DNA from: Anaerolineae bacterium
GTDB taxonomy: Bacteria > Chloroflexota > Anaerolineae > B4-G1 > SLSP01
Direction: 5' to 3'
Length of the DNA: 64,000 bases
Assembly (NCBI GenBank): GCA_035347995.1
Contig: DAOPQD010000001.1
Location: 46,012 to 110,011, forward strand
Part shown: positions 981 to 51,825 of the stretch, in pieces
Layout of the letters: every line of letters begins with the position of its first letter
Position numbering within the stretch: position 1 is the stretch's first letter
Notes under the pieces: model-generated
What the model was told of the DNA's origin: nothing
Seen by the model: the letters and a program-made list of their open reading frames with translations, nothing else
Databases searched by the model: none
Translations under genes and position numbers: made by a program

Positions 981-983
981 GCC

Positions 984-4492: not shown

Positions 4493-4493
4493 C

Positions 4494-5588: not shown

Positions 5589-5752
5589 GCCGTTGGCATT
5601 GTCGCGGGGAAGCTGCTGGCGGAGTTGGGTGAAGGGAAACAAGGGCGCAATAAAAGTTACCAGTGCGGAACCGGAGCGTTTCCAATTGGGAACCGCATCG
5701 TTTCCCACCTGGCAGAGAGTTTTACATGCCTGGTAAAGAATTTTGCAAGCAT

Positions 5753-5814
5753 GAGAACGTAGACGTGCGAACGTGCGAACGTAAGATCCGCTGACTTGCT
5801 GATTCGCTTATTTT
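5753..5814. repeat. Promoter-proximal 8-bp-period tandem repeats upstream of the HAMP-GAF sensor gene (GAACGTGC type followed by GATTCGCT type)
   Basis: gagaacgt|agacgtgc|gaacgtgc|gaacgtaa followed by ctgacttg|ctgattcg|cttatttt, ending 2 nt before the RBS GGGGAG. Confidence 0.65.
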
Positions 5815-5829
5815 CAGGGGAGATTGAGC

Positions 5830-10308: not shown

Positions 10309-10322
10309 GGAGACCTGAGAGT

Positions 10323-33267: not shown

Positions 33268-35535
33268 TCATCCCCCGGCGCGAACCCGAACGCTCCCCAG
33301 GGGAACCAGGGCATTAGGAAGCGGGGCCTCGTCCTCTGAGGCGGGGAGGCGCGTCCCATCGGCAGCGCGATACAACCCTGCCCACAGATGATAGTCGCCG
33401 GGCGGGAGCGTTGCCGGGACGGCGAGGACATGCGTGTCGGGGACGATGTCCCCTGGCTGCCAGAGCGGGGTGGGGAACCAGCCGTCACGCGGTTCGCTGT
33501 CGTGCTGGGCGTAGGCCGTTGCCGCCCCGGGCTCCCAGAGATGCACGAAGGCTATCAGCGGCTCGTTGATGGTCGAGGCGGCTTCCCAGTACAGGGTCAC
33601 GGTGAGAGGCTGTCCCGCCTGCACCGTGGGACTGCGGTCATAGCCCCGCAGGACAGTGGCCTCGCCGAAGTCCACCGCCAGCGGATATGCCGGCTCTGGA
33701 ACGTGCGCTTCTTTTGGAGCCAGCACGACCGAGGCGACGATGGGTGGCGCGACGGGAATGTCCCCCGCGGTCGCCGGAAGCCGCTCGCCCGTTGCGGCGT
33801 CGAAAAGTCCGATTTCTAGCAGCGCGCGGAGCGGCGTGTCTACCTGGGAGGGGAGCGTCAGCTCGTACACATCGCAGAACGCGCGGCCCACAGGCCATAG
33901 CGAGGTGGGGAACCGTCCCAGCCCTGGATACGTGCGCCGTGAGGTGATGATCCCGTTTTCGGGACCGAGAAGCTGGACGAAGACGGTGTAATCGCGCGTC
34001 ATGGGGCGGGCAGCCTGCCAGCAGGCGCGCACGGCGAAGTCATCTCCGGGCGCCAGTCGCTCTGTTTTCACGAGGGCGGCGCTCAACAGCAGCGCTTCAT
34101 CGTCGTAGCGCAGTTGGGGCGTCGAGATCATCGTCGGCGAGAACAATTTTGGCGGCGCAAAAGTCGCCAGAATCCGCGCGCCGGGGGCCAGGACGGTGAG
34201 GGTGACGAGCAGCGTGAGGAAGAGCTTCTGGTAACGGCGGGGAGCGCGGCCGGAACCTTGAAATCCCGCCGCTATCAGCACTGCCCACGCTCCAATCGCC
34301 GGGAACAGCAGCCGTCCGTGGGGCGCTTCGACCTGTCGCATCCAGTGCAACAGCGCGGCGAAAACCCCCATCAACCAGAAAGTGCAGAGCAGGTAGATGG
34401 CTCGCGAGCGCCGGGAGGGGACGGCTGAGGCAGGCCGGGGGCTGCGGAGCATCCGATAGAGCCCATGGAGGAGGGCTCCTAGCGTGAGCAGCGTCAGCGC
34501 GACGTAAATCCAGTCGGGCCACCAGACGTGTCCCCATCCATACGCGCCCCAGAAGGAGCGCCACAGCAGGGGGAACTCCGGGACCAGCGCCAGCAGGGAA
34601 ACCGGCGCCGGGCGCCCCCACAAGGTATTGACGTGATGGGACATGCCCAACGGGTCCCCGTAGAGGAACAGATTGCGGAGATACCACCCCCCACCGACGA
34701 GCAGCGCCGTCAGCCCAAAGGCCAGCGCCGCGCGCCATGTGTCCCGATAGCGTCGCATTCCCCGCGGCGGCGCGGGCTGCTCCTGCGTCTGTCGCCATCC
34801 CTGCCAGAGCAGGCTCAGGCCGGTGAGGGGGAGCAGCAACAGCGCGCTCGTTTTCGTCAGCGCTGCCAGGCCGGCAAGGGCGCCGGCGAGGGCGGCGCGG
34901 TGCGGGGTGATTCCCCGCCGCAGAAAACGCGCCGTGGCCCACAGGGTGGCGGTAGAAAGGGCGGCGGTAGCGCTGTCGTTGCTGACCACGCTGCTCATGA
35001 AGACGAATTGGGGATGAAAGCCCACCAGGGCCGCGGTGAGCAGTGCCGCGCGCTGATTCCCAAATGCCTCGTAGCCCATTCCCCACGCGGCGCAGACGGT
35101 CACCAGGCCGAAGAGCAGCGAGGCGAAGCGAGCGATCCGCACGGCGAGGACGGCGCCGCGGCCCGGAAAGCCTTCCCGTGGGGTGTGGATGAGCATGTTT
35201 TTGTTGTCGGGCGTAGTTCCCGGCGCCTGATAGCCGAAATGTGGATTGTGCCAGAACAACGTCTGCAGGTCGTCATCGGGGAAGGGGGCGCTGAGCAACG
35301 CCGCGACGGCGTAATAGAGCGGCGGTTGCGCCACTTCCTGATTCGCGCCGCTGGCATTGTCCTTCATGGAGGGCAGGCCGTGTCCTTCGGCGAGCCAGCG
35401 GACGTAGGCGTAGTGCCAGACCTCATCGGGCGCTTCGAAAAGTGGCGTGGCCCAGCCATGCAGCACCACCAACACCGCGAATGCGGCGAGGAGCGGGATG
35501 AGCGGATGCAGGCTGCGGCGACGGCTACAGTTCAT
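33268..35535 (-). CDS. GT-C fold (PMT/ArnT-like) membrane glycosyltransferase, paralog 1, with C-terminal periplasmic tandem beta-domains
   Basis: The DE motif sits in loop 1 (LFEAPDEVWHYAYV), followed by a multi-TM core (~450 aa). The C-terminal ~280 aa carries two copies of a ~85-aa module (YTVFVQLLGPENG...SLWPVG.. and IAFVHLWEPGAA...PLWQPGDIV...GDYHLWAGLYRAADGTRLPA). The start overlaps the stop of the upstream paralog (ATGA). Confidence 0.7.
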   Translation of the reverse strand: MNCSRRRSLHPLIPLLAAFAVLVVLHGWATPLFEAPDEVWHYAYVRWLAEGHGLPSMKDNASGANQEVAQPPLYYAVAALLSAPFPDDDLQTLFWHNPHFGYQAPGTTPDNKNMLIHTPREGFPGRGAVLAVRIARFASLLFGLVTVCAAWGMGYEAFGNQRAALLTAALVGFHPQFVFMSSVVSNDSATAALSTATLWATARFLRRGITPHRAALAGALAGLAALTKTSALLLLPLTGLSLLWQGWRQTQEQPAPPRGMRRYRDTWRAALAFGLTALLVGGGWYLRNLFLYGDPLGMSHHVNTLWGRPAPVSLLALVPEFPLLWRSFWGAYGWGHVWWPDWIYVALTLLTLGALLHGLYRMLRSPRPASAVPSRRSRAIYLLCTFWLMGVFAALLHWMRQVEAPHGRLLFPAIGAWAVLIAAGFQGSGRAPRRYQKLFLTLLVTLTVLAPGARILATFAPPKLFSPTMISTPQLRYDDEALLLSAALVKTERLAPGDDFAVRACWQAARPMTRDYTVFVQLLGPENGIITSRRTYPGLGRFPTSLWPVGRAFCDVYELTLPSQVDTPLRALLEIGLFDAATGERLPATAGDIPVAPPIVASVVLAPKEAHVPEPAYPLAVDFGEATVLRGYDRSPTVQAGQPLTVTLYWEAASTINEPLIAFVHLWEPGAATAYAQHDSEPRDGWFPTPLWQPGDIVPDTHVLAVPATLPPGDYHLWAGLYRAADGTRLPASEDEAPLPNALVPLGSVRVRAGG

Positions 35536-38390
35536 TGGGGCCTCACGGTGAGGGGAATCACGACGGCGTTCTGCGGCGGAACCGATGCGGCGCTGCTCAC
35601 GGCGAGCGGCCCCGCTTCATCATACAGGCCGACGCGCAGGTCGTAGCTTCCCGCCGGCAATCCTGCCAGGGGATGCTCATCGGCGACGATCTCGCCGGTC
35701 ACCCAGGTGGTGGTAGGTTTTCCTCCCAGCGCGGGCCAGCTGTCATGTTGCCCGAGGAGCGGGCTGATGGTGCCGGGGGCCGTGACGTGGACGAACACGT
35801 TGTAGGGCGAGTTGCCGGTCTCCTCAGCGCGCCAGTAAAGGGTGAGGGTGAAGGGTTGTCCGGCGCCAGGCTCCGGCTCCAGCCGATAGCCAAGCAGTGC
35901 GGCGACGCCTGGACCGAAGTCCCCCGTCGCGGGCAGCAGGCCGTCCGGCGGCTGGAATTCCCGCCCGGCCACGATAGAGATCTCTGGCCCGCGCCATCGG
36001 GCCAGCGGCGCGCCCGCGGCAGTGAGGAGCTCCGCGGTGAGGGGGGCCTCGGCATCCAGCGCGCGGCAGGAGATGGGCAGGCGGAACTGCGTGGCGAAGC
36101 GGGTCCCGGCGGGAAGGGGAGAGGTCACGTTGGCCGCCGTCAGGGGCAGCGTCACCGCGTGTTCGGCGAGAGATAGGCGCAGGACATCGCGCCTGTCGGC
36201 AACGGCATAGGGCGCTGGGACCGCCCAAAATGCCCGGCCCTCGAGCGGCTCGCAGGGCCGCATGGTTTCCCGGCTGAGCCAGAACCCCAGCAGCTCGAGC
36301 GGGGAAGCTCCGGCGGTCGCCGCGCCGGGCTCTACCGGGATGGCATTTTCGGGGAGCGGGGGCGGCGCGGTCGCCGGCAACAGTTCGACCGGCTGCAGGG
36401 TGACGCTCGCCGAGGCGGCTCCTGCCACGTAGACGGTGAGGGTGGGCGTGGTGCTGCCGGGAGGCGTCCAGGGGTCAGGCGTCAGCGGATAGCGACCCAG
36501 CACGGGCGTCCCCGCCTGCCAACGCGAGGGACGGTAATCGCCGCTCGCCGGGGTGCCGTTGAAGCGCGCCCACTCATCGCCGCGAGCGTCGAGCAGGCGC
36601 AGCGCTACCTGATAGAAGCGCTCGCCGTGCGCGGCAGGATCTTCGGTGACCCAAAAGGTCCACACATCCAGGGTGCTGTCAACGGGCTGCGGCGCTTGGG
36701 GAAGCCGATAGCCCCACAGCGTCAGGTGAGGCAAAGTGGGCGTCGCCAGGCGTTCGGTGAGGTCGGGCTCTGGCGGGAAGTCGGCGCGGCGCGCAAGTGC
36801 AAAACGGCGCAGGCCCAGCCCGTGGAATTCCGGCGTGGGCACTTCGGCGCCCAGCTCCCCCAGCAGCGCGGGGACGACGCCGGTGGGATCGGTGATGGTC
36901 TCGAGCCAGGTGACGAGCCAGACCTGGGACGTGTTCTGGAGCGCCGCGTTCAGAGCGGCGGCGCCATTCGCGTAGTCAAGAACGTGGGTCACGTCCAGCA
37001 GTTTGTCATCAGGGAGGGGCAGCAGCCCCTCGAAGCCGGCATAGTACGCCCATGCCGGGAAGACCGAGCCTGTCTCTACGATGATGACGTCGCCGGGCGC
37101 GCGATTTTCCATGACGTAGTGCGCAACGCTGCGCCAGTCCTCCGTGGCGTAGGTCGGATCGGTGAGGAGATTGGCGTCCGCCTGCGCCGAAAGCGCGACG
37201 ACGAGCACGCTACACACGCCCAGGCCCAGTCGGGCCAGCGTGCGTCGGCGTCGGCCATGAAGCTGCGCCGCCATCCCCCAGCCGATGGCCAGGGCCAGCA
37301 CGGGCAGTGGTGCAAAGCCTGAGGCATGGCGACTGCCCCATTTGGGCAGATTGCGGAAAACTACTGCCATGAGCCCCAGGGGCATCAGTTGCAGCAGGGG
37401 ATAGAGTCCCGCAAGGGGACGACGGCGCGTCAGGATCAAGGCCCCAAACGAGGCCACCAGTATCAGGCCTCCCGCCGCGACCTTCCAGGCTGAGGGTAGA
37501 AAGTCGAAGACCGTCATGCCGGCAATGGAAGTGCGCAAAAATTCGGCGATGGGCAAATATCCTTCCCAGTAGGTGGCGTTTTGTCCCAGGGAGGGGAGGG
37601 CCTCCAGGACCCAGGGCAGAAAGATCAGCCCGGCGAGGAGTGTAGGGGGGAACATCGCCTGAAGCCACGCGCGCACCTCTTGCCAGGGACGACGGATCAG
37701 CGCGAGGAGCGCGAAGAGCGCCTGCCCCACCAGCCAGAACGCCGACAGCGTTAATGAAGCCATGGCACCCAGGGCGGCGGCACCCCACAGCCAGGCCCAC
37801 CGTCGGCGGGGACGTGGTTCGAGGGCGAGGAGCGTCTCGACTAACGCCATCCCCGCCAGGAGTGACCAGGCGATGAACGCGCCGTACATTCGGGTCTCGC
37901 GCGAGGCCCAAATTAAGGTGGGGGCAAGCGCGCCCAAAAGCAAGGCCCAAGTGCCGGCTGAGCGTTTGCCGGACAGTCGGCGGGCCATGTGGGCCAGCGC
38001 CGCGAGCGCGAGCAGGCCGTAGAGGGCCGAGGGGAACCGCAGGGCGAATTCGCTGGCGCCGGCGAGCGGAATCCAGGCGCGGAGCAAGAAATAGTGGGCC
38101 GGCGGGACGAGTTCGCTCGCGCTGAGCGCCAGCATCTCGCGCACGCTTACCTGAGTGGTCGCCCACCACAGATAGGCCTCGTCATACCACAGGCTACGCG
38201 CGCCGAGGCCTCCAACGCGCAACGCGAACGCCATCCACGGGAGCAGTATCACCCCTGCGTGTCGCTCAAGCCATCGTTTCACGGGCAGCCCTTGACTGAG
38301 TTCATAGAAGAGCACTTTTCTAACCGCTGAGCGGACCAGAGACACAGAGGCAAAAGCCCCCTGGCAGACAAAACGGTGGCCAGAGAACAT
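35532..38390 (-). CDS. GT-C fold (PMT/ArnT-like) membrane glycosyltransferase, paralog 2 (952 aa), with long C-terminal periplasmic repeat region
   Basis: DE motif RSLWYDEAYLWW and a multi-TM core. The C-terminal ~450 aa contains the same repeated module (YQVALRLLDARGDEW...RWQAGTPV; YNVFVHVTAPGTISPLLGQHDSWP...WVTGEIV...GSYDLRVGLYDEAGPLAV). The exact start is uncertain (38390 or an internal Met). Confidence 0.65.
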   Translation of the reverse strand: MFSGHRFVCQGAFASVSLVRSAVRKVLFYELSQGLPVKRWLERHAGVILLPWMAFALRVGGLGARSLWYDEAYLWWATTQVSVREMLALSASELVPPAHYFLLRAWIPLAGASEFALRFPSALYGLLALAALAHMARRLSGKRSAGTWALLLGALAPTLIWASRETRMYGAFIAWSLLAGMALVETLLALEPRPRRRWAWLWGAAALGAMASLTLSAFWLVGQALFALLALIRRPWQEVRAWLQAMFPPTLLAGLIFLPWVLEALPSLGQNATYWEGYLPIAEFLRTSIAGMTVFDFLPSAWKVAAGGLILVASFGALILTRRRPLAGLYPLLQLMPLGLMAVVFRNLPKWGSRHASGFAPLPVLALAIGWGMAAQLHGRRRRTLARLGLGVCSVLVVALSAQADANLLTDPTYATEDWRSVAHYVMENRAPGDVIIVETGSVFPAWAYYAGFEGLLPLPDDKLLDVTHVLDYANGAAALNAALQNTSQVWLVTWLETITDPTGVVPALLGELGAEVPTPEFHGLGLRRFALARRADFPPEPDLTERLATPTLPHLTLWGYRLPQAPQPVDSTLDVWTFWVTEDPAAHGERFYQVALRLLDARGDEWARFNGTPASGDYRPSRWQAGTPVLGRYPLTPDPWTPPGSTTPTLTVYVAGAASASVTLQPVELLPATAPPPLPENAIPVEPGAATAGASPLELLGFWLSRETMRPCEPLEGRAFWAVPAPYAVADRRDVLRLSLAEHAVTLPLTAANVTSPLPAGTRFATQFRLPISCRALDAEAPLTAELLTAAGAPLARWRGPEISIVAGREFQPPDGLLPATGDFGPGVAALLGYRLEPEPGAGQPFTLTLYWRAEETGNSPYNVFVHVTAPGTISPLLGQHDSWPALGGKPTTTWVTGEIVADEHPLAGLPAGSYDLRVGLYDEAGPLAVSSAASVPPQNAVVIPLTVRPQ

Positions 38391-38448: not shown

Positions 38449-39546
38449 TTACGGTTTTACGATTTCGATGTTGCCGTATCCCTCGGTGACACAGGCGTCG
38501 GCAGTGGGGCGGCGGGAAAGCAGCCGGACGATGATTTTGTCGCCGGATTGCAGGGATTGCATTCCCGGAATGCTCACGCTGTGGCTAGTCGTAGGGGTCG
38601 GATTGAGCACAGTGGCCTGCCATATATCGCGCATTATCAATGGCAGGAACATCGTGTGACTCATGGGAGCCGTCGTTGTGACAGGGGCCGTGCTGCCCAC
38701 TATCTGATACCATACCTGTGTCGAGCCGGGGACAGTGGTGTTCCAGTTCAGGAGGAGGTTATCGCCGTCGAAGGTGTGCTGCACTGAGGCAGAATCAATG
38801 TAAGGCGAGTTCCATGAGGTCGGCTCCGGCAGCTTGCCGTTGGGGAATCCAACCTGTACCAGGGCGCCGTTGTCCCACCAGGCATCGTACCAGGCGGTCT
38901 GATCGCCGGTGTAGGAGGGATTGGCGTAGGTGATAGCGGTGAGCCGGGTTCCCAGTGGTTCTGCCGTCGTCGCGAGGCGTTCCCACGTGGTCAAGATGGT
39001 CTGTTCGGCTGACCAGGCCGTGCGTGGCGGCATTTGTCCGCCGATGAGATCGTTGTGATCGTGATCCAGGGTGATTTGCGTGCCTTGCAGGTCGAGGCCG
39101 ATGCGTGTATGGGGCACTGTCCCCGCGTTGCCGCGGCTATTGACGTACATCGAGAACTCGTAGGGCACACAGGGGGTCAAATTCTCCACGACCTGATAGA
39201 CCCCTGCCTGGTAGTTGGCGCCCCATTTGAAGTATACTTGCGCGTGACGCCCGCTGTAAGGGGGCCATCGGAGGGCGCCGGAACGCATGTCATCGTATTC
39301 GGGGATCATGGTGTTTGCCGCCGGCATGTTCACCCACTAGCGATACCAGTTCAAAGCCAGAAAGTGGTTTGGAGGAAACCAGATGAAACCGTGGGTCGCA
39401 GGATCTTCGGCTTCAAAGTCGCCGTTTACCAGAACGTTGCCGTTGTTGGCCTGCACTGCGGGGGCAGGGTTGGCGTTGGGCTGGAACAGCAGCAAGCTGC
39501 CCAGCATCACCAGAATCCAAACGTAACGCAAACGCGAAGTTTTCAT
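38449..39546 (-). pseudogene. Secreted CBM4/9-like carbohydrate-binding protein interrupted by an in-frame TAG (39337-39339), making it a candidate pseudogene or readthrough gene
   Basis: The track gives ORF 39337..39546 (69 aa: signal peptide MKTSRLRYVWILVMLGSLLLFQPNANPAPAVQA followed by NGNVLVNGDFEAED..., a CBM_4_9-type start) and ORF 38449..39333 (294 aa, no signal peptide, GTG start). They are in the same frame and separated only by TAG plus one TGG codon. RBS GGGGGGA lies upstream of the 39546 ATG. Confidence 0.5.
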
Positions 39547-39649
39547 GGAATCCCCCCTTTTCTATAGCATAAATGTAGATGGATAAGTCCAGAGAGGCAG
39601 TTTTCCGTTTGGACTTTCCTGTGTGATTCTACCACAATTTTGCCGAGCT

Positions 39650-41845
39650 TCAGCGCGACCAGAGGACAAGGGCGTCGTTGGGCTGACGTTCGGCGCCGAC
39701 GAAAGCGGCCAGGCGCGCGCCGGTCTCCGGATGATAAAGCCCCACGGCGATGGTGACGGGGGCCTCTGCCGCGGTGAGCCGGTGACTATCCAGGACGCGG
39801 TCGCCGGGAAGCCAGAGGTGGGTGGGGAAGGCCTGTCCCATTGGTGGAGCGTCGCCTGTCGCCAGGAGCGCGCCATCGGCGGCGCAGGCATGGACGAAGA
39901 CGGTGTAGTCCGCATCCACCGGCGCGAGGCTCTCCCAACACAGGGTCACTTCCCACGCATCGTCCCGTTCCGTGAGGGCAGCGTGGGTGAGCGCGAGCGC
40001 CTCCCCAAAGCGGGCTGGCATTTCCAGCGGGGGGAGGGTGTCGCACGGCGGCTGACTTCCCTGGATTCGCAGGGTGTCCAGCCTTGCCGCATCGCCCGCG
40101 GGCTGTCCCGCGAGGGTGACGGGGAGCCGTGCCTTGGTCTCGCCATCGTAAAAGGCAAGGTGAAGCTCCCATGCCTGCGTGGGAAGGTCGCTTGCGGGCA
40201 GCGGTAACAGCAATTTCTCGCGGAGCAGGGCCCCGGCAGGCCAGGCAGAGGTCGGCAGATTGCCATGTCCAGGCCAGGCATCGTAGGTGAGGCGGAGGGT
40301 GTTGTCGCCAGACCGGGCGGAGACGAGTTGCACGGCGAGCGCCCACTCCTCATCGAGGGGACGCAACGCTTCCAGGTAGAGCTGCAGCTCCAGGGCGGGA
40401 CGACAGTAGCTGGATTGCACCAGCCAGCAGGCCAGGCGCGACTCCGTCAACCGCACCTCATAGCCGCGCAAAGCGATGGCTTCCGCGCCGAAGACGACGT
40501 CGGTGGTGTAGGGGAGGGGTGTTGAGTCTTCCAGACGGGCGGGAGGAGCGAAGAGCGGCGCTGCGCCGGCGAGGAGCGTGATCAGTGCGCCGAGCGGCAG
40601 CCAGATGGCCCAGGCGCGCGCCAGTCGCGGCTGAAGCTGCTGCCAGCCGACCGCGAGGAGCACCGCGAGGGCGGGGGCTGCGGGAAAGAGCAGCCGTCCT
40701 CCCGTCGCCGGGGTGAGGGCATTCCAGCGCACCCATGCGACCACGATGATGACGAACCAGCCGCCCAGGAGCGCCAGCTCCGTCCGCCGCGCAAGGGTGC
40801 GGAAGTGCGCCATGAGGCCCACGCAGCCGCCTCCGAGCAGCGCGAAAAAGGGCCAGTAGAGCGCCCGGGGATAGAAAGCGCACGGCAGCTGTCCCCAATA
40901 GGAGCGCAGCATCAGCTGGAACGTGCCCCAGAGATCCACGCGTACCGCCGTGCGCCCGACGACGTCCAGCATGGGGGCGAGGGCGGTCAGATCGCCGTAG
41001 AGCCGCCAGTTGCGTCCCAGCCACGGCGTGACGAGTGCCAGCGCCGGAACAACGAGCAGCACTCCCCAGCGCAGCAGCCGGGTCAGTGGGGCGCGTTGCC
41101 GCCAGGCGTAGGCCAGGAGGGTCAATCCGCCCAATCCGAGCAGTCCCAGTCCGCTGAGTTTGCTCAGCGCTGCCAGTCCCGTCAGGATGCCAAAGCCGAG
41201 GAGGCGCGTTGGCGTCGGACCACGCTGCCAGATGTCCACCAACAGCACCAGCGCCCAGGTGGCCAGCGGGATGACGAGGTTATCGTTGTTCACCCCGGCC
41301 GCGAGGAGCAGGAATTGCGGGTTGAAGGCGACGACGGCCGTCGCCAGCGGCGCGACGAATCCTCGGGGCGCCAGCCGTCGGGCAAGAGCCCACGTCCCTG
41401 CGACGGTGGCGCATTGTAGAAGGGTGGAAAGCAGCCGCAGCGCGTAGACCGTGCGGCGATGTCCTTCCGGAGGGAACCCGGTGTAGGGATCGCGGCTCCA
41501 GGTGACGCGATTGTAGAGCGTATCGCCAGAGCCACAGGCGACGAAGGTGGCGGGAATGGGCCGCACGTCCGGCGCTTCGCGGGGCAGACCCCACAGGCGC
41601 ACCCACGCCGCGCCAAGGAGATGGTACAGCGGCGGCTGCGAGGCTTCTTGCCGGACATGGAAGCCGGCCGCCTCGGCCTCGCCATGGACGGGCAGCCGGC
41701 CGGTCACGGCGATGTGGCGGATGACCTCCGCGTGTTCGATCTCGTCGAGGTTTTCGTAGGGTGGGATCGTTATGTTCCAGGCCAGCGCCAGGCTTACGAA
41801 GGTCACCAGAATCAGCCATAGGCCGGCGCGTGAGGAGTGCATCAT
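39650..41845 (-). CDS. GT-C fold (PMT/ArnT-like) membrane glycosyltransferase, paralog 3, with C-terminal tandem beta-domains
   Basis: The start is taken at MMHSS (41845), which overlaps the esterase stop as ATGA; the track start at 41875 is also possible. DE motif is YENLDEIEHAEV, followed by a multi-TM core. C-terminal repeats are WALAVQLVSARSGDN...SAWPAG.. and YTVFVHACAADGALLATGDAPPMGQAFPTHLWLPGDRV...GLYHPETGARLAA. Confidence 0.7.
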   Translation of the reverse strand: MMHSSRAGLWLILVTFVSLALAWNITIPPYENLDEIEHAEVIRHIAVTGRLPVHGEAEAAGFHVRQEASQPPLYHLLGAAWVRLWGLPREAPDVRPIPATFVACGSGDTLYNRVTWSRDPYTGFPPEGHRRTVYALRLLSTLLQCATVAGTWALARRLAPRGFVAPLATAVVAFNPQFLLLAAGVNNDNLVIPLATWALVLLVDIWQRGPTPTRLLGFGILTGLAALSKLSGLGLLGLGGLTLLAYAWRQRAPLTRLLRWGVLLVVPALALVTPWLGRNWRLYGDLTALAPMLDVVGRTAVRVDLWGTFQLMLRSYWGQLPCAFYPRALYWPFFALLGGGCVGLMAHFRTLARRTELALLGGWFVIIVVAWVRWNALTPATGGRLLFPAAPALAVLLAVGWQQLQPRLARAWAIWLPLGALITLLAGAAPLFAPPARLEDSTPLPYTTDVVFGAEAIALRGYEVRLTESRLACWLVQSSYCRPALELQLYLEALRPLDEEWALAVQLVSARSGDNTLRLTYDAWPGHGNLPTSAWPAGALLREKLLLPLPASDLPTQAWELHLAFYDGETKARLPVTLAGQPAGDAARLDTLRIQGSQPPCDTLPPLEMPARFGEALALTHAALTERDDAWEVTLCWESLAPVDADYTVFVHACAADGALLATGDAPPMGQAFPTHLWLPGDRVLDSHRLTAAEAPVTIAVGLYHPETGARLAAFVGAERQPNDALVLWSR

Positions 41846-42609
41846 TCCATTCCTTCGGGAGGCCTCTCGAACCATTCTCGCGCTGCCTGCCAGGCGCGTT
41901 CGCGGTCAAGATCGAGGACCACGGTGTGTCCGCCGCGTTCCAGCCAGAGCAGCTGCTGTGGTCCGCCGAGCCGCGCCGCGACTTGACGGACCACGCGCGG
42001 GGGAACGGCGTGATCATGGCGGGCGTGGACGAGCAGGGTGGGGACACGCACGTCGGGCAGGCGCGCGTCCATGGCGAGCAGAAAACTGCCCAGTTCTGCC
42101 ACGGCCCGTAAGGGAATGCGCCGGTAAATGAAGCGGGCGCGACGAGCGGCGGCGTCGTGCATGTCGGAGCCGATTTTGGGCAGATAGGGGATCACGCGGG
42201 CGAGATGAGAGAGCCAGCCAGGCGGTAAGCCGTGGAAGGCAAAGCCGCCGGGGGTAGCGAAGGCGACTACCCGCTCCACGGGGTCCTCGGCGGCGACGTA
42301 GAGCGCCAGCGCCGCGCCGAGCGAGACCCCGGCGATGCCCAGGTGCTGACGTTGGCGGCGCAGTTCGGCGAGGCCGGCGCGGACGTCCGCGACCCAATCC
42401 TGCCAGTGGACGGCGGCGAGATCTTCGGGAGTGGTGCCGTGGCCGCGCAGCCGGATGCCAGAGACGGTCATGCCGGCGCGCGCCAGCGCTTCGCCGAGGG
42501 GCCGGACTTCATCCGGTGCAGTGAGGAAACCGTGAATGAGCAGGATGCCCGGCTCTCCGCCGGGCAGAAAGAACGGCGTCGGTTCTGGTCGCGCGCGATC
42601 TTCTTTCAT
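41842..42609 (-). CDS. Alpha/beta-hydrolase fold esterase/lipase-like protein (first gene of the envelope operon)
   Basis: GILLIHGF (oxyanion region) and the nucleophile elbow GVSLGAALAL (GxSxG). The His/Asp region is VHARHDHAVP. 255 aa. Confidence 0.75.
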   Translation of the reverse strand: MKEDRARPEPTPFFLPGGEPGILLIHGFLTAPDEVRPLGEALARAGMTVSGIRLRGHGTTPEDLAAVHWQDWVADVRAGLAELRRQRQHLGIAGVSLGAALALYVAAEDPVERVVAFATPGGFAFHGLPPGWLSHLARVIPYLPKIGSDMHDAAARRARFIYRRIPLRAVAELGSFLLAMDARLPDVRVPTLLVHARHDHAVPPRVVRQVAARLGGPQQLLWLERGGHTVVLDLDRERAWQAAREWFERPPEGME

Positions 42610-42748: not shown

Positions 42749-44122
42749 ATGAATAGAAAGACGCTAACTTCCCTGGTGTTGATCTTGTTGTTGGCGGCCG
42801 TGGCGCTTTATCTGGTGGTGCCGTCGCAGCATCCTGAGTGGCTGAAGCGCCTGCTGCTGTGGCAACCGGAGACCGCGCGCTCCCTGGAATTCATGCAGGG
42901 GTTGGACCTGCAAGGTGGGCTGCAACTCTCGATGGTGGCCGACGTGCCTGCCGGACAGCAGCTCTCCGCCGAAACGATGCGTGCGGCGGCGCAGGTGGTC
43001 GAGGGCCGCGTCAACGCGCTGGGCTTGAGCGAGCCGGTGGTGCAGGTGCAGGGGACGCGGCGCATCATCGTCGAGCTGCCCGGCATCGCCGACCCGGAGC
43101 AGGCGATTGATACCATCCGCGATACGGCGCTGCTTGAATTCGCCGAACCGCCTGCCGGCGCCGGCGAGGCGGAACTGACGCCCGGACGGGTCGTCAGCAC
43201 CACCTACGGCATGGGCGAGGACGTCACGGCGCCGCCCGGCTACTACAAGACGATTCTCATCGGTGATGCGCTGGATTCGGCCTTCAACACGGTGGATGAG
43301 ACTACCGGGCAGCCCATGGTGATCGTGCGCTTCAAAGCGGCGGATACACAGCGTTTTTACGAGTACACGAGCAATAACATCGGGCGCCCTCTGTGCATGG
43401 TGCTCGACAAAACTATCCTCTCGTGCCCTACCATCCGTGATGCCATCCCTGATGGCGAGGCGCAGATTTCCGGCGGGTTCACGTCGGAGAGCGCGCAGCA
43501 GCTCGCGATTCAGTTGCGCTACGGCGCCCTGCCGGTGCCGCTGAAAATCGAAAGCTACCGGGCGATTGGCCCGTCGCTGGGTGCAATTTCAGTTGAGAAA
43601 AGCATCCGCGCCGGCGTGGTCGGTCTGCTGGTGGTGTTCCTGTTCATGTTGATTTACTATCGCCTCAATGGCCTGGCGGCGGATCTGGCGCTGGCGCTCT
43701 ACGTGTTGCTCAACCTGTTGCTCTACAAATTGTTGCCCGTTACGCTGACCCTGCCAGGGATCGCAGGCTTCTTGCTCTCGGCGGGCATGGCCGTGGATGC
43801 CAACATTTTGGTCTTCGAGCGCATGAAGGAGGAATTGCGCCATGGGCGCTCGTTGGAACGGGGCGCGGAGGCGGGATTCAGCCGCGCGTGGACCTCGGTG
43901 CGCGACTCCAATCTGGCAACGCTTTTGACGTGTGCCATTCTCTGGTTCTTTGGCAACGCTTTTGCCGCGAGCCTCGTCAAAGGCTTCGCGCTGACGCTGG
44001 CGCTCGGTACGCTGATCAACATGTTCACCGCGCTGATGGTGACCCGAACTTTCGTCCGTACGGCCCTGGGGGTGCTGGGCGAAGAACGGGTGCGGCGCCA
44101 TCCCTGGTTGCTGGGAATTTAG
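42749..44122 (+). CDS. secD: Protein translocase subunit SecD
   Basis: The N-terminal TM is followed by a large periplasmic domain, then six C-terminal TM helices with SecD motifs (LPGIAGFLLSAGMAVDANILVFERMKEE). It is followed 12 nt later by secF. Confidence 0.9.
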   Translation: MNRKTLTSLVLILLLAAVALYLVVPSQHPEWLKRLLLWQPETARSLEFMQGLDLQGGLQLSMVADVPAGQQLSAETMRAAAQVVEGRVNALGLSEPVVQVQGTRRIIVELPGIADPEQAIDTIRDTALLEFAEPPAGAGEAELTPGRVVSTTYGMGEDVTAPPGYYKTILIGDALDSAFNTVDETTGQPMVIVRFKAADTQRFYEYTSNNIGRPLCMVLDKTILSCPTIRDAIPDGEAQISGGFTSESAQQLAIQLRYGALPVPLKIESYRAIGPSLGAISVEKSIRAGVVGLLVVFLFMLIYYRLNGLAADLALALYVLLNLLLYKLLPVTLTLPGIAGFLLSAGMAVDANILVFERMKEELRHGRSLERGAEAGFSRAWTSVRDSNLATLLTCAILWFFGNAFAASLVKGFALTLALGTLINMFTALMVTRTFVRTALGVLGEERVRRHPWLLGI

Positions 44123-44134
44123 GAGGCTGACGAG

Positions 44135-45198: not shown

Positions 45199-45229
45199 GT
45201 GACCCCCATTCGGTGCTATAGTGCTGCGT

Positions 45230-48200
45230 ATGCGGTTTCTGACTCCAAACAGCTTGTGGCTTCTGGCCCTGGCGCTGCCCATCATTGCCCTCTATCTGCT
45301 GCGCCTGCACCGACGGGAGACCCCTGTCGCCAGCGTGTTGCTCTGGCAGGCGGCGGCCGTCGAGCGTCGCGCCAATCGCCCCTGGCAGAAATTACGCCGT
45401 CACTGGCTGTTGGCGCTGCAGCTGCTGATTCTGGCGACGCTGGTCGCGGCGGCCGCTCACCCTGCCGTTCCCGCGCCGTCAACGCCGCAGGGACGGCTGT
45501 TGATCCTGCTGGACGCTTCCGCGAGTATGCAGGCGCGCCGCGAGGACGGCAACACGCGCTTCGAGGCGGCGCTCGCGGAACTGCGGGCGCTCTCTGAGGC
45601 GCTGGATGCGCGCAGCCGGGTGACGCTCATCACCACGAGCGCGACACCGCAGGTGGTGTTGCGCGACGGGGATGCTGCGGCGTTGCGGCGGACGCTCCCC
45701 GCGCTGCAGCCGACCGATGGCGGCGCCGATTGGGACGCGGCGGCGAGTCTGGCGCTCGGCCTCGCGGCCGGGGAAGAGGTCACGACGCTGGTGTTCACCG
45801 ATGCGGCGCTGGCGGAGTCCCTGCCCCCTCTGCCGGGCCGGGCGCAGCTCTTTACCGTAGGGGAGGCCGCCCCCAACGTGGGACTGGTGGATTTTTCTCT
45901 CCGCCGCAGCGCCGAGACTTTCACCGCGTTTGTGCGTGTGCTGAACGCCGGCCCGGCGCGACAGGTCACATTGCTGTTGCTTGCCGGCAGTGAAGTCCTC
46001 GCCCGTCAGGCGCTGGAGCTGCCCGCTGCGGGCGAGGTGACGCTCTCTTTCCCGGATCTGCCCACCTGGGGGTGGTTCGAGGCGCGCCTTGAGGACGCCG
46101 ATGATCGTTTCCCTTTGGATGATCGCGCCTGGGTGACACCGCCGCTCTCTGGCAGCGGGCAGGTGCTGCTGGTGACGTCGGGCAACCGCTTCCTCGAACT
46201 GGCATTGCGCGCCCTGCCGGGGATCGCCGTGCAACAGGCGACGACGCTGCCCCAAGACACCGCCGAGATGAGCGCCGCGGTGTTGGACGGCGCAGGCAGC
46301 GGGGGGACGTTCAGCGGCCCGGCGTGGTTGATTGCCCCCGGCGCGGGGACGCCCTGCGGCGAGCCGACAGGTGTTTTCACGCCGACAACGCCCCTGCGCA
46401 CCGGGTCCCATCCGCTGCTGGAATATGTCACCTGGGATGACGTGCACATTGCCCGCGCCACACGCTATGCCGCGCCCGCCGACGCCGTGACCTTGCTGGA
46501 AACGGCGGAAGGCCCCTTGCTCTGGGTGCTGAACCGGCCAGGGCAGCGGCTTATCTGCCAGGCGTTTGCCCTGCAGGACTCCGATCTGCCGCTGCGGGTG
46601 GCTTTCCCCATCCTCACCAACAATCTGATGGGCTGGCTGCTGCCGCAGACGTCACAGGCGCCGATTACCCCCCTGCCGGCAGGACAGCCCTGGACGCCAG
46701 CGCTCCCTCTCGCGGCGACGGCGGCTGTGTTGGTCACACCCACGGGGGAGCGCGTGGACTTGCTGGACGTGACAGCGTCCCTTCCGCAGCGCGCGGGGCT
46801 GTACCGCCTGGAATTGGAGACGGCGGGCGGGCCGGCAACGCACTATGTGGCGCTGTCGTTGCTCGATGCGGCGGAAAGCGATCTGCACCCCCATCCGCTG
46901 ATGATCGAGGGGCAGGCGCCTTTGAGCGCTGCCCCCGGCGCGACCGGTTGGCGCGACTTCAGCCGCTGGGTCGCTGCGGCGGCCCTCGCGTTGTTGCTCC
47001 TCGAAGGGGCGCTCTGGTGGGGGCGCGCGGCTGCCTGGCATGGGGTGCGCGCGGCCCTCTCCGCGTTGCGCTATGACTGGCGCCCTGTGGCGTTGCGGCT
47101 GATCCTGGTAGGGGCATTGATCCTGGCCCTCGCGGACGTGCGCCTGCCCCAGGCGACGCGCAATCTGGCGACGGTGTTCGTCGTGGATCGGTCTGCGAGC
47201 GTCGCGGCGGAGGAGGGGGAGATTGAGGCGCTATTGACCGCTGCCTGGGAGGCCAAAGGCGCGCAGGACCGCGCCGCGGTGGTCGTTTTTGGCGGGGAAG
47301 CGCGGGTCGCACAGCCGTTGTCTGAGGGGTCTTTCGCGGCTGATCTGCGCCTGGCGCCCCAACCGGATGCCACCGACATTGCCGCTGCCGTGCGGTTGGG
47401 GGCGAGCCTCGTCCCTGAGGGAGCGCCGGGGCGGCTGGTACTCATCACCGATGGGCTGGAGACGCGCGACGATGGGGCGACTGCCCTGCTTCAGGCACGT
47501 GCGCGGGGCCTGGAGACGCTGGTGGCCGCCGTGACGCCGGCGGCGTCGGCGGAAGTGTGGATCGAGGCGACGCGCCTGCCCGCGCGGGCCTATCCGGGGG
47601 ACACAGTGGCGGTTGCTGTGACGCTGGGGGCGACGGCTGCTCAGCCCGTCCGCCTCACCTGGGCGGCAGGTTCGCAAGAAGGGGATGTTGTGTGGGAGGT
47701 CTCCCGTGGGCAGGGCAGGTATTTGTTCACCTTCAGTGCGCCAGAAAGGGGATGGGTGCCCGTGCGTTTTTGCGTGGCGGCGGAGGCGGATTTTTTCGTG
47801 GAAAACAACTGTGGCGGCGGTTGGCTGCGCGTGGAAGGGGTGCCTCGCGTGCTCATTGTGGGGGCGGTGGAGGAACGGCAGGCTTTGGCGGCGGCGTTGC
47901 GCGCCACCGGCCTGGAAGTGGTGGAACTGCAGCCGGAGGCGCTGCCGTTCACTGCTCCGGCCTTGGGCGACTATGCTGCGGTGATCCTGGTCAACACGCC
48001 CGCCCGCGCTTTGCCGTTGCAGGCCGGCTCAGCGCTGCAAGCTTATGTCCGCGATCTGGGCGGGGGCCTGGTGACGCTCGGCGGACCGGAAAGCTACGGG
48101 GTGGGTGGATGGTCTGCCACCGCTCTGGAGGCGGCGTTGCCCGTCTCCACGCAGGTGCAGGATCCACGCCGGTTTCCTCCGCTGGCGATGGTCATCGTGA

Positions 48201-49705
48201 TTGACAAATCGGGCAGCATGGCAGAGTCGGACGCGGAAGGGGGGACTCCAAAAATCCGGCTTGCGGCGGAAGCGGCCGCGCGTGTGGCGGAGGCATTGAA
48301 CGACAACGACGCGCTCGCGGTGGTGGCCTACGACGATCGGCCGGCGGACACTCTGGGTCCGGTGTCGGGGAGCGAGCGGCAGCTGTTGCTCGGACGTTTG
48401 TCGCAGTTGCAGGCGGGCGGCGGCGGCATCTACGTGCGCGACGGCCTGGCCTATGCCCGGCAGCTGCTCGCGGAGAGCTTCGAGCCGCTGTCGGAGCAAC
48501 AGCGGCATGTGCTGTTGGTGGCGGATGGCAGCGACGCGGAACAACAGGCGGGCGCGCTGGCGCAGGTGGCCGCTTTGCGCGCTCAGGGGGCGACGGTGAG
48601 CGTGATCGCGATCGGCGCTGGCGGTGATGTCCCCTTTCTGCAGGAGGTGGCGCGTCAGGGCGAGGGGCGCTTCTATCTCACGGAGCGTGCTGCGGACCTG
48701 CCGGTGATTTTCACGGAGGAACTGGCTCACACGCGACGCTCCTACATCGTCGAGCAGAGCTTCTCTCCTATCGCCGGAATGGCCTGGGAGCCGCTGGAGA
48801 GCTTCACGGCGCTGCCAGCTCTGGCGGGATATGTGGCGACGACTCCCAAACCCGGCGCGGATGTGCCGTTGTGGGGCGCCGTGACCGGGGATCCACTGCT
48901 GGCAGCGTGGTCCTATGGCTTGGGGCGCGCTGTGGCCTGGACCTCTGATGCGACAGGTCGCTGGGCCGTGGAGTGGCTGGGCTGGGAGGACTTCGCGCGC
49001 TTCTGGGGTGATGTGGTGCGGTGGGTGTTGCCCGCACCCGCGGAGGAGGGGGTGACGCTGAACGTCGCCGCGGAGGATAGACAGGCGCGCGTCACCCTCG
49101 ATGTGCTGGATCCGACGACGGGCCGCTATGTGGATGGCCTGGATCTCGTGCTGCAGGCGTCGCAGCTGGAAGCCAGGGTGTCTGTCCCGCCGACGGCATT
49201 GCGCCAGACGGCGCCGGGCCGTTATGAGACCACCCTGCCCCTGGGGGATGACACTGCCCCGTGGCTTTTCCATGTCACTGGCGCATTGCAGGCTACCGCG
49301 GGATGGATGCCGCCCTACGCGGCCGAATTCGTGCCGGGCGATGCCGCCGCCGCGACCGCGCGCTTGATCGCCCGGGGACAGGCGCAGCCTCTCACGGCGC
49401 CGGAACAGGCGTTTGCGCCGACCCTGCGCGGACGTCAGGCAGGAGCGCCGCTGGCTCCCTGGTTGGTCACCATCGTGGCGTGGCTCTGGCCCCTCGATAT
49501 TGCCGCGCGGCGCCTGGGGATTTCATGGGACGAGGTGCGGCGGTGGGGAAGGCGTTGGCGCAAGAGTGGTCGGAGGGAATCGCGTTCTGCATCGCGGAGC
49601 GTCGCGTCCCTGCCGGTGGAAAGCCCGCCTCCGGCGCCGCCGCCATCTCAGGAAGAAGCGCTGGCGGCGCGGCTGAAGGAGCGCTTACGCGGGTCCCGGC
49701 GCTGA
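45230..49705 (+). CDS. BatA-like multi-VWA fusion protein (N-terminal double-TM BatA domain, three vWFA domains, GATase1-like/DUF1355-like domain, C-terminal TM and Arg/Ser-rich tail)
   Basis: The start is taken at ATG 45230 (the track's GTG is at 45221). The N-terminus MRFLTPNSLWLLALALPIIALYLLRLHRR is the BatA/TIGR02226-type pattern. VWA MIDAS motifs are LLILLDASASM, VFVVDRSASV and MVIVIDKSGSMAESD...AYDDRP..QAGGGGIYVRDGLAYA. The GATase1-like segment is RVLIVGAV...VILVNTPARALP...GGGLVTLGG. A TM helix (WLVTIVAWLWPL) is followed by the tail RRWGRRWRKSGRRESRSASRS..PPPAPPPSQEE. No MoxR ATPase gene is adjacent. Confidence 0.75.
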   Translation: MRFLTPNSLWLLALALPIIALYLLRLHRRETPVASVLLWQAAAVERRANRPWQKLRRHWLLALQLLILATLVAAAAHPAVPAPSTPQGRLLILLDASASMQARREDGNTRFEAALAELRALSEALDARSRVTLITTSATPQVVLRDGDAAALRRTLPALQPTDGGADWDAAASLALGLAAGEEVTTLVFTDAALAESLPPLPGRAQLFTVGEAAPNVGLVDFSLRRSAETFTAFVRVLNAGPARQVTLLLLAGSEVLARQALELPAAGEVTLSFPDLPTWGWFEARLEDADDRFPLDDRAWVTPPLSGSGQVLLVTSGNRFLELALRALPGIAVQQATTLPQDTAEMSAAVLDGAGSGGTFSGPAWLIAPGAGTPCGEPTGVFTPTTPLRTGSHPLLEYVTWDDVHIARATRYAAPADAVTLLETAEGPLLWVLNRPGQRLICQAFALQDSDLPLRVAFPILTNNLMGWLLPQTSQAPITPLPAGQPWTPALPLAATAAVLVTPTGERVDLLDVTASLPQRAGLYRLELETAGGPATHYVALSLLDAAESDLHPHPLMIEGQAPLSAAPGATGWRDFSRWVAAAALALLLLEGALWWGRAAAWHGVRAALSALRYDWRPVALRLILVGALILALADVRLPQATRNLATVFVVDRSASVAAEEGEIEALLTAAWEAKGAQDRAAVVVFGGEARVAQPLSEGSFAADLRLAPQPDATDIAAAVRLGASLVPEGAPGRLVLITDGLETRDDGATALLQARARGLETLVAAVTPAASAEVWIEATRLPARAYPGDTVAVAVTLGATAAQPVRLTWAAGSQEGDVVWEVSRGQGRYLFTFSAPERGWVPVRFCVAAEADFFVENNCGGGWLRVEGVPRVLIVGAVEERQALAAALRATGLEVVELQPEALPFTAPALGDYAAVILVNTPARALPLQAGSALQAYVRDLGGGLVTLGGPESYGVGGWSATALEAALPVSTQVQDPRRFPPLAMVIVIDKSGSMAESDAEGGTPKIRLAAEAAARVAEALNDNDALAVVAYDDRPADTLGPVSGSERQLLLGRLSQLQAGGGGIYVRDGLAYARQLLAESFEPLSEQQRHVLLVADGSDAEQQAGALAQVAALRAQGATVSVIAIGAGGDVPFLQEVARQGEGRFYLTERAADLPVIFTEELAHTRRSYIVEQSFSPIAGMAWEPLESFTALPALAGYVATTPKPGADVPLWGAVTGDPLLAAWSYGLGRAVAWTSDATGRWAVEWLGWEDFARFWGDVVRWVLPAPAEEGVTLNVAAEDRQARVTLDVLDPTTGRYVDGLDLVLQASQLEARVSVPPTALRQTAPGRYETTLPLGDDTAPWLFHVTGALQATAGWMPPYAAEFVPGDAAAATARLIARGQAQPLTAPEQAFAPTLRGRQAGAPLAPWLVTIVAWLWPLDIAARRLGISWDEVRRWGRRWRKSGRRESRSASRSVASLPVESPPPAPPPSQEEALAARLKERLRGSRR

Positions 49706-49993: not shown

Positions 49994-50833
49994 TTAGTTG
50001 CCGGGGGCTTCTTGCCTGGCAGCCTCGATGCCGCTCTGAACCTCGGCCGCATGGGCCAGAGTGGCTTCCTTTTTGCTGCTTAGCAGGGCGTCCTTGAGCG
50101 TGGCGATAATCAGCAGCGAGATGGCGAAGCTGCCGATATCGAGCGGGCTTTGGCCGGGGGTGGTGATGGCCATCTCGGCCTCGCGCGCGGCCAGGGTCGT
50201 CCCGCTGTCGGCAATGCAGACGGTAGGGATGCCTTTGGCGTTCGCCAGTTTAACCGCGTGACCGGTGTCCACGCCGGGGGTGCCAAAGACCAGCGCCAGC
50301 AGCACATCCCCAGCCTGCATGTCGTTAGTGGCCTTGGCGACTTCCACCATACTGGGGGCGAAGTGGAAGACGGGAATCCCCAAGGGGACGAGGCTTTCCG
50401 CCAGATACCGGGCAATGTCGTAGCTGGGGAATTCCCCGACGATCCAGATGCGTTCTGCATTCTGGAGCATCTTCAACGCCTGGGCCAGGTGAGGGGCCTC
50501 GGTGGTTGCAAACTGCTCCAGGTCCTGGGCCTTACTGGCAAAGAGCGCCTGCACGAGATCCTCTTCGTTGCCTGCCTCGACGGCCTTGTGATAGGTCTGC
50601 GCGATCTCCCCGCGCACGTAGGCCTTGATTTCCCTGGAGAGCTCCCGGAACCCGCTATAGCCGATTTCCTGTGAGAAACGCACGACGGTCGCCGGATCAA
50701 TCCCAACGCGCCGGGACAGTTCTGTCGCTGTCAGGAAGGCAACGTCAAGGGTTTGATTGAGGATGAAATCTGCCAGGCGGCGAAATCCAGGGGTCAAATT
50801 AGCATAATGCTCTTCAATCCGTTCTCGAAACAT
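49994..50833 (-). CDS. RpiR/MurR-family transcriptional regulator (HTH_6 + SIS domain), paralog 1
   Basis: The N-terminal HTH is LTPGFRRLADFILNQTLDVAFLTATELSRRVGIDPATVVRFSQEIGYSGFRELS. The C-terminal SIS domain is RIWIVGEFPSYDIARYLAE...GDVLLALVFGTPGVDT. Confidence 0.8.
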   Translation of the reverse strand: MFRERIEEHYANLTPGFRRLADFILNQTLDVAFLTATELSRRVGIDPATVVRFSQEIGYSGFRELSREIKAYVRGEIAQTYHKAVEAGNEEDLVQALFASKAQDLEQFATTEAPHLAQALKMLQNAERIWIVGEFPSYDIARYLAESLVPLGIPVFHFAPSMVEVAKATNDMQAGDVLLALVFGTPGVDTGHAVKLANAKGIPTVCIADSGTTLAAREAEMAITTPGQSPLDIGSFAISLLIIATLKDALLSSKKEATLAHAAEVQSGIEAARQEAPGN

Positions 50834-50888
50834 GGTAGTCTCCTTTCCTTATACTGAATGCGTTGATGCTGCAAGGCCGAATCAGCTG

Positions 50889-51764
50889 TCAATCTTTCGT
50901 CTGAGGGAGGATTGCCTCGTAAGCGGCAGTGTGGGTGCGCAGCTCCAGGATTTCGCTGAGATACTCGTTGTAGGCGGCGAAGGACTCTGCCGTCTTGGCC
51001 GCCGTGGTGCCCGCCAGCGCTTCCCAGATCAGCGCGATGATCGCGAGCGCGGCGCCGGTGTTCGGGATGCCGGTCTCGCCGGCGGTGGGAACAAGGACGA
51101 CCAGTTCGGCTTCGTGGGCCGGCGCGCCGAGGGTGTTGTCGGCGATCGTGATCGTGTGCACGCCTTTCTCTCGCGCCATCCGCACCAGATACCCGGAATC
51201 AATGTCCGGCACGCTGATGGCCAGCACCAAGAGTGCGTCTCCCGGCTCCATCTTGCTGAGGGCAGCGGCGACGTTGAGCATATCCGGCGCAAACGCCCTG
51301 GCCTGGATGTCGGCGACTTGCAACATCCGTGCCAGGAACTGCGCGATGGCTTGCTGGGGGCCTTCCCCTGTGATCCAGACGCGCGGCGCCTGTTTGAGGA
51401 TCCGGAGCGCTTCACCGAGTTTGGCCGTCTCGGTCATGGAAAAATCTGCGAGGTTTTGGCGTGTGCTGTCCAGAAGCTGGTGCACCAGCGCCTCTTCACT
51501 TTCGGCCTCGACGCTTTTGCGGTAGGTAGTCGTCACCTGATCGCGCACGTAATGTTTGATCTCGTGTGAGAGCTCGCGATACCCGCTATAGCCGATCTCC
51601 TGCGCAAAGCGGACGACGGTGGCCGGATCCACTCCTACACGGCGGGAGATTTCGGTGACGGTGAGGAAGGCCGCGTCGAGTGTGTGGTCCATGATGAAAT
51701 CGGCCAATTTGCGAAAACCCGGCGTCAAACTATCGTAATACTGTCGAATTTGCTCTTGAAACAT
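50889..51764 (-). CDS. RpiR/MurR-family transcriptional regulator, paralog 2
   Basis: The start is taken at MFQEQIRQYYDSL (51764) with RBS AAGGAGA 8 nt upstream; the track ORF extends to 51803 without an RBS. The HTH is LTPGFRKLADFIMDHTLDAAFLTVTEISRRVGVDPATVVRFAQEIGYSGYRELS, and a SIS domain follows. Confidence 0.8.
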   Translation of the reverse strand: MFQEQIRQYYDSLTPGFRKLADFIMDHTLDAAFLTVTEISRRVGVDPATVVRFAQEIGYSGYRELSHEIKHYVRDQVTTTYRKSVEAESEEALVHQLLDSTRQNLADFSMTETAKLGEALRILKQAPRVWITGEGPQQAIAQFLARMLQVADIQARAFAPDMLNVAAALSKMEPGDALLVLAISVPDIDSGYLVRMAREKGVHTITIADNTLGAPAHEAELVVLVPTAGETGIPNTGAALAIIALIWEALAGTTAAKTAESFAAYNEYLSEILELRTHTAAYEAILPQTKD

Positions 51765-51825
51765 GGTTGAAATCTCCTTACTTTGATTTGCTGATGGTGA
51801 CAATGCTGGAACGATATCCTTACGG

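Follow-up and report, generated by a model that had tools for sequence, protein, structure and literature searches.

Probable inactivation, by a nonsense mutation, of the gene for a conserved CBM-like secreted protein in one strain lineage of uncultured Anaerolineae from digesters

Strain-specific nonsense pseudogenes of bacteria share a simple pattern, in which one transition has placed a stop at a conserved codon within one clonal lineage while orthologues and neighbouring genes are intact. We describe a gene that resembles them on the minus strand of a 64,000-nucleotide stretch of contig DAOPQD010000001.1 from an Anaerolineae bacterium (hereafter the window, whose positions serve as coordinates throughout). 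The gene (38449..39546) comprises 365 sense codons, one internal TAG and a terminal TAA, and is predicted to specify a signal peptide, a jelly roll like those of carbohydrate-binding modules (CBMs), and an Ig/FN3-like domain. It differs from typical nonsense pseudogenes in that it is known from metagenome assemblies of an uncultured organism, is annotated as two 'hypothetical proteins', and shows no visible further decay. An in-frame UAG within an otherwise intact coding sequence also recalls amber suppression and pyrrolysine recoding; here, however, UAG replaces tryptophan in one young lineage, TAG commonly serves as a true stop in the window, and the window holds neither pylT nor a suppressor tRNA.

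Two further groups of described systems resemble the gene product and its surroundings. The ~200 N-terminal residues of the mature protein are predicted to form the same beta-jelly-roll sandwich as CBM4, CBM22, CBM61 and CBM70 modules, although here no glycoside hydrolase is joined to the jelly roll, an Ig/FN3-like domain comes after it, and the gene lies among those for GT-C glycosyltransferases. The nearest studied analogue of this arrangement appears to be the actinobacterial Pmt system, which carries out O-mannosylation in Streptomyces and Mycobacterium; the likeness lies in a secreted protein with a Thr/Pro-rich segment that is encoded beside PMT/PMT_2 GT-C enzymes. Loss of the Pmt pathway in Streptomyces alters the cell envelope and phage sensitivity, with resistance to phiC31 as the phenotype of pmt mutants (PMC6593405). 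In contrast to the actinobacterial system, the window belongs to the phylum Chloroflexota, the Pfam matches of its GT-C proteins are weak or moderate, each of these proteins has a large extra C-terminal region, and glycosylation of the protein studied here is hypothetical.

Here, we argue that the internal TAG is in all likelihood the product of a real and recent TGG to TAG nonsense mutation in one widespread strain lineage of Anaerolineae, uncultured and known from digesters. The mutation would most likely inactivate a conserved envelope protein that is secreted and CBM-like. The lineage is near-clonal and comes from wastewater and anaerobic-digester communities. The event is most likely of an ordinary kind, a strain-level gene loss, and neither an assembly error nor a case of recoding.

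A tryptophan codon replaced by TAG in one lineage

The reading frame opens at ATG 39546-39544 and continues through 69 sense codons to TAG at 39339-39337, which is codon 70 (39337..39339, minus strand). In the same frame, TGG (39336-39334) and GTG (39333-39331) follow, and the frame remains open until TAA at 38451-38449. The minus strand around the stop reads ...AAC TGG TAT CGC TAG TGG GTG AAC ATG CCG..., and the list of open reading frames gives the upstream piece as 39337..39546 and the downstream piece as 38449..39333, the latter with 294 residues counted from GTG. Both sources confirm the coordinates and translation given in a preliminary description of this DNA, in which a single frame was reported to be split by an in-frame TAG. 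The 5' fragment (39337..39546, minus strand; 69 codons plus TAG) specifies the signal peptide and the first ~36 mature residues. The 3' fragment (38449..39333, minus strand) has neither a signal peptide, as had been claimed, nor the first jelly-roll strands; it comes to 294 residues from GTG 39333, 292 from ATG 39327, and 286 from ATG 39309. The restart at GTG that had been described is present in the list of open reading frames, whereas public gene calls start at ATG 39327 or ATG 39309. Exact look-up in public records returned the 69-residue stub (HOC19925.1, HQM12855.1) and the 292-residue remainder (HOC19924.1, HQM12856.1), as well as the 286-residue form, all entered as separate 'hypothetical proteins'.

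The sequence upstream of the frame was inspected by eye. A candidate Shine-Dalgarno-like GGGGGG (39552..39557, minus strand) lies 5 nucleotides upstream of the true ATG, and no clear Shine-Dalgarno sequence was seen before the possible starts of the 3' piece at GTG 39333, ATG 39327 and ATG 39309. A 100-bp gap separates the gene from the GT-C gene upstream of it, and within this gap an extended -10-like TGgTAGAAT (39626..39634, minus strand) is a candidate that may be the gene's own promoter; it is absent from the output of a consensus promoter scan, which demands a -35 element.

A tblastn search with the intact homologue P0001 (366 residues) aligned as a single segment, 39546-38452, with 91% identity over 366 residues, and crossed the stop. 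Because this one segment spans TAG, the two open reading frames are one gene and not a chance juxtaposition. The joined protein retrieved 98 homologues from Anaerolineae, Thermoflexales and other Chloroflexota metagenome-assembled genomes (MAGs), nearly all of them 350-400 residues long and covering 85-100% of the query. The residue opposite TAG, which falls in the motif W-x-R-W-W, was tryptophan in 37 of 37 homologues aligned and then in 71 of 71, and codon 70 is TGG in each of the four closest intact alleles (L010, L011, L014 and L001). Judged from these close alleles the ancestral codon was TGG, which one G>A transition turns into TAG. Among genomes sampled at one per GTDB species, a scan turned up 25 loci with the gene, and none of the 25 has an internal stop. 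Since every other allele and species is uninterrupted and reads TGG, the disruption is specific to the lineage of the window. The preliminary description had held that the two halves belong together as one gene with a premature stop, and this is borne out by the full-span homologues and by the position of TAG opposite an invariant tryptophan. It had also asked whether orthologues have a sense codon at this position or are themselves split into two genes: they have tryptophan, encoded by TGG in the close alleles, and no orthologue is split.

The same TAG recurs in other assemblies. Gene calls for the 69-residue stub exist on 19 public contigs, which belong to assemblies of JGI, Logan, ENA and NCBI. 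We fetched eight of these 19 TAG loci (JGI 3300010346, 3300009669, 3300006592 and 3300006595; Logan SRR4236650 and SRR28640815; ENA ERZ27257425; NCBI GCA_040364335.1). They include contigs of 277 kb (Ga0116239_10000041; JGI 3300010346) and 192 kb (ENA ERZ27257425) and are 99.2-100% identical to the window. Some bear private differences in the flanking glycosyltransferase genes (three in L006, one in L007), so the TAG records are not all copies of a single assembly. Sister strains that are 96-99% identical to the window read TGG, as do sister strains that share its flanking 29-mer, which renders a systematic sequence-context error implausible; because TAG recurs across projects and assemblers while these sisters read TGG, a one-off sequencing or assembly error is excluded. 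Among the three explanations put forward earlier, the evidence favours nonsense mutation. Assembly error fails on the 19 contigs with the same TAG and on the independent assemblies, which show no sense codon in this lineage. As to provenance, SRR4236650 is a US wastewater sample (PMC7300365), and the names of the closest intact MAGs, ADurb.Bin222 and Gw_SlDig_bin_283, suggest a digester origin. DNA patterns around codon 70, designed to count TAG and TGG haplotypes, gave no matches in the collections metagenome_contigs (two patterns) and genome_contigs (one pattern), although 13 of the 16 fetched loci contain the first pattern; these contigs are evidently absent from both collections.

The encoded protein and its gene neighbourhood

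The joined protein matched no Pfam family at E<=1, CBM_4_9 (PF02018) included, and no NCBIfam family, and a sequence-profile search of the PDB returned no match below E=0.2; a few distant homologues show a weak match to PF16656 (FN3-like). An AlphaFold2 model was built on the intact homologue P0001, which is 91% identical, with a 71-sequence alignment (pLDDT 90.8, pTM 0.83). The model places an N-terminal helix at residues 3-20, corresponding to the signal peptide, a disordered linker at 24-32, a beta-sandwich at roughly residues 35-235, and a second all-beta domain at 240-366 that is interrupted by a lower-confidence Thr/Pro-rich loop at about 285-310. The signal peptide was assigned from this helix and the linker after it together with inspection by eye, which also gave a cleavage-like site between AVQA and NN. 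The invariant tryptophan, W70, sits in beta-strand 68-72 of the jelly roll.

When the first domain was compared with the PDB by Foldseek, the matches were CBM4-2 (2y6j, 2y6k and 4bj0; target TM-score 0.67-0.70), CBM61 (2xom; 0.69), the hyaluronan-binding module CBM70 (4d0q; 0.66), and CBM22 (4xup), together with CBM-like domains from Vip3 toxins. The CBM matches overall had target TM-scores of 0.65-0.70 at a probability of 1.0 and a sequence identity of 11-15%. The earlier label of a CBM4/9/22-type protein is thus upheld by Foldseek as a description of the fold, and not as a family assignment, for which a Pfam match at E<=1 was missing. The confident model predicts that the intact product is a Sec-secreted protein of ~365 residues, consisting of a signal peptide, a CBM4/22/61-like jelly roll, and an Ig/FN3-like domain that includes a loop rich in Thr and Pro. 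The family was seen here in Chloroflexota only, has a conserved T-x-YLPLV loop, and is represented by loci L017-L044 besides the window. A tblastn search of the window with P0001 found no paralogue able to compensate.

The gene is the third of five co-directional genes on the minus strand. The cluster starts with an alpha/beta hydrolase of 255 residues (41842..42609; Pfam Hydrolase_4 69 bits, Abhydrolase_1 52 bits), which overlaps the start of the second gene, encoding a polytopic GT-C-like membrane protein of 741/731 residues (39650..41875) with a sub-threshold match to Pfam PMT (E=0.004; 17.1 against a curated cut-off of 22.7). Downstream of the interrupted gene lie a 952-residue PMT_2-type GT-C glycosyltransferase (35532..38390; PMT_2 32.0 bits against a cut-off of 26.1) and, overlapping it by 4 nucleotides, the last gene of the cluster, for a 755-residue PMT/PMT_2 GT-C glycosyltransferase (33268..35535; PMT_2 48.7 bits, PMT 29.5 bits). 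SecDF is encoded divergently upstream of the cluster and ClpB beyond it. The genes on either side, 39650..41875 and 35532..38390, have no internal stops, in agreement with the earlier statement that the neighbours are intact; the 'six-gene envelope operon' of that account comes down to five co-directional genes, namely the hydrolase, a GT-C gene, the interrupted gene and two further GT-C genes.

A context of PMT, PMT_2, DUF2142 or YfhO-type GT-C genes recurs at the distant homologues L017, L018 and L019. At every homologous locus whose neighbours were examined, the family member lies between large GT-C genes, and L017 has two paralogues of the family in one cluster (8001-9068 and 13359-14462). 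The three GT-C proteins of the window (35532-38390, 39650-41875 and 33268-35535) each have a C-terminal extracytoplasmic extension of ~350-500 residues past the PMT-like core, and the tails of these extensions look alike (for example ...LTLYW.A...H.D..P...W..G); they may constitute a shared glycan- or substrate-binding domain. The secreted protein could be an extracytoplasmic, envelope glycan-binding partner of the GT-C enzymes or one of their glycosylated substrates.

Allele structure, age and competing explanations

The age of the stop was approached by comparison with L010, the closest intact contig. The flanking genes of the window differ from those of L010 at a synonymous divergence (dS) of 0-0.011. 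Codons 1-216 of the interrupted gene show a dS of 0.013, with two synonymous and two non-synonymous differences (P89S and T91A) plus the stop, and codons 217-366 a dS of 0.125 with a ratio of non-synonymous to synonymous divergence (dN/dS) of 0.47. In this C-half the other two allele classes lie at about the same distance from the window allele (dS 0.12-0.21). Because its dN/dS there, 0.33-0.47, equals that between intact alleles, 0.40-0.47, the excess divergence of the gene stems from the import of a third allele class, itself evolved under selection, and not from decay after the stop. Apart from the loss of a single codon, in frame, from a variable loop, no second lesion accompanies TAG. In a test of lineage-specific dN/dS, which used the flanking genes as control and has no power to detect decay, the window allele gave 0.30-0.47, like intact alleles and with no rise toward 1. 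A comparison of the fetched TAG loci found no private mutations in the gene within the TAG clade. Since dN/dS is that of intact alleles and the clade has no such private mutations, the mutation is probably young.

No other stretch of the cluster is as divergent as this gene. Its C-half (window 38449-38900, codons ~217-366) is a hot spot of strain divergence, with at least three allele classes at the dS of 0.12-0.21 given above beside flanks at a dS of 0-0.01. Strains combine N-halves, C-halves and flanks in different ways; L001, for example, joins an L011-like N-half to an L014-like C-half. This pattern points to recombination, or to diversifying pressure on a domain exposed at the surface. 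Two TAG contigs, L008 (JGI 3300006592, 677-1657) and L009 (JGI 3300006595), carry TAG together with intact L011-type blocks (codons 153-175, I116). Either the amber allele has truly recombined into other backgrounds, or these contigs are a consensus of mixed strains.

These observations are consistent with the following course of events. A G>A change at codon 70 would have become fixed in a single near-clonal strain lineage. With a stop in place of the invariant tryptophan of a core strand, translation would end at a 69-residue stub that holds the signal peptide and about 36 further residues. Re-initiation at GTG 39333, ATG 39327 or ATG 39309 could produce a cytoplasmic fragment devoid of the signal peptide and the first strands. 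The net effect would be loss of function, with at best trace function via background readthrough.

Several points weigh against a recent, inactivating mutation. Some of the seemingly independent assemblies may re-assemble the same sequencing runs, and loss of the protein is deduced here from DNA. The tRNA scan spanned the 64-kb window, and a tRNA-CUA elsewhere in the genome is possible. At highly conserved columns the window allele departs at 4 of 71 (W70 to stop, P153L, T222A and A274G) and intact alleles at 0-2, numbers that are too small to give more than a weak hint of decay. Finally, the allele persists over several samples and projects with no further decay, also on the mosaic backgrounds of L008 and L009, and such persistence would be expected as well if the allele were tolerated or useful, or if readthrough were functional at a low level.

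One alternative refines the reading of an inactivating nonsense mutation and is not exclusive of it. It takes the protein to be a surface component that varies between strains and is probably glycosylated, such as a receptor for phage or a factor that presents such a receptor, and supposes that the amber allele was selected and has spread among digesters. The shuffling of at least three classes of C-half between strains with nearly identical flanks would fit such a protein, as would the recurrence of the TAG allele in several samples; the position of the gene among PMT-like GT-C genes invites comparison with the phiC31-resistant pmt mutants of Streptomyces (PMC6593405). There is, however, one loss-of-function allele in a 60-member cluster, with no sign of recurrent inactivation, and hitch-hiking in a successful clone could explain the spread equally. 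We regard adaptive loss as unlikely; the data cannot tell apart neutral loss, a deleterious allele that hitch-hikes, and adaptive loss. About equally doubtful is a broader proposal on the amber codon, which takes two forms: TAG would be read through or suppressed so as to yield a reduced, tuned level of the protein, or the knock-out would itself be selected, for example for escape from phage. Either, if true, would explain an undecayed nonsense allele that recurs in digester and wastewater metagenomes of several projects.

A more specific form of the readthrough idea, which had been listed among the earlier explanations, is that a suppressor tRNA or natural near-cognate readthrough decodes TAG often enough for full-length protein to be secreted and the gene to stay functional. 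We consider this improbable. By a hand tally of the open reading frame lists, TAG terminates about 5 of the ~32 confident genes of the window, including SecD (44120-44122), a GAF-like gene (978-980, after which a fresh ATG follows) and a HAMP/GAF protein (10306-10308), and the position of the SecD stop is conserved in sister strains. A scan of the 64-kb window found no tRNA and no Rfam element, and hence no pylT or suppressor tRNA, and the 106 nucleotides 3' of TAG fold no better than shuffled sequences (z=+0.6). TAG thus behaves as an ordinary stop in the window, and the readthrough explanation is not supported. The base at +4 is U, and termination-context work in E. coli has shown UAG-U to be a comparatively efficient terminator. 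The codon replaces tryptophan and does not occupy a Lys/Pyl-type position, and it is confined to one young lineage while orthologues read TGG. The absence of further damage downstream of TAG and the persistence of the allele across samples would both suit a decoded codon, and a decoding tRNA might be encoded beyond the scanned window; the lack of decay, however, is expected anyway for a young mutation. Two further in-frame TAG junctions in the window, 978-980/984 and SecD/SecF at 44120-44123, were considered and set aside as genuine gene ends with new start codons after them.

An artefact of sequencing, assembly or consensus calling, with TGG as the true codon, is very improbable. The difference is one base, strains can mix in a metagenome consensus, as the short mosaic contigs L008 and L009 illustrate, and several assemblies may share runs. 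Against this stand the presence of TAG on 19 contigs from different pipelines and projects, among them the two of 277 and 192 kb, the private single-nucleotide polymorphisms that the later data sets SRR28640815 and GCA_040364335.1 have elsewhere, and the TGG of sister strains with identical flanking 29-mers. Least probable, to the point of being negligible, are two genuine separate genes, one for a 69-residue secreted peptide and one for a 292-residue cytoplasmic protein, as the public annotation of two hypothetical proteins would have it, since no orthologue is split, the break falls within a beta-strand of a single domain in the AlphaFold2 model, and the 3' piece has no signal peptide though the family uniformly bears one.

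Other features of the window and implications of the broken gene

Three other arrangements in the window were noted. At 9-16817 on the plus strand lies a series of large tandem genes (9-980, 984-2732, 2732-4492, 5824-10308, and an open reading frame of 2176 codons at 10287-16817) that looks like a paralogous sensor array. The three of them scanned against Pfam (984-2732, 2732-4492 and 5824-10308) have multi-GAF content, with HAMP in addition in 5824-10308, and a similar C-terminal tail (...RAAV.L...) is found in the four tandem genes whose C-termini were read. On the minus strand, 49994-52752 holds three consecutive paralogous RpiR-type regulators of 279, 304 and 308 residues with HTH_6 and SIS domains. 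Directly downstream of SecDF, a gene at 45221-49705 on the plus strand encodes a membrane protein of 1494 residues with BatA-N, triple VWA and GATase1-like regions.

The finding of a real, most likely inactivating nonsense mutation calls for a correction of public annotation, in that HOC19925.1 and HOC19924.1, and likewise HQM12855.1 and HQM12856.1, are the halves of one broken gene. The TAG/TGG site is a natural marker that separates co-existing digester strains. The TAG strain, moreover, would be a natural mutant for an uncharacterised family of secreted CBM-like proteins of Chloroflexota that accompanies PMT-like GT-C glycosyltransferases. Comparison of TAG with TGG strains, in envelope glycans, filament sheath, phage load and abundance, may offer a first functional handle on this family.

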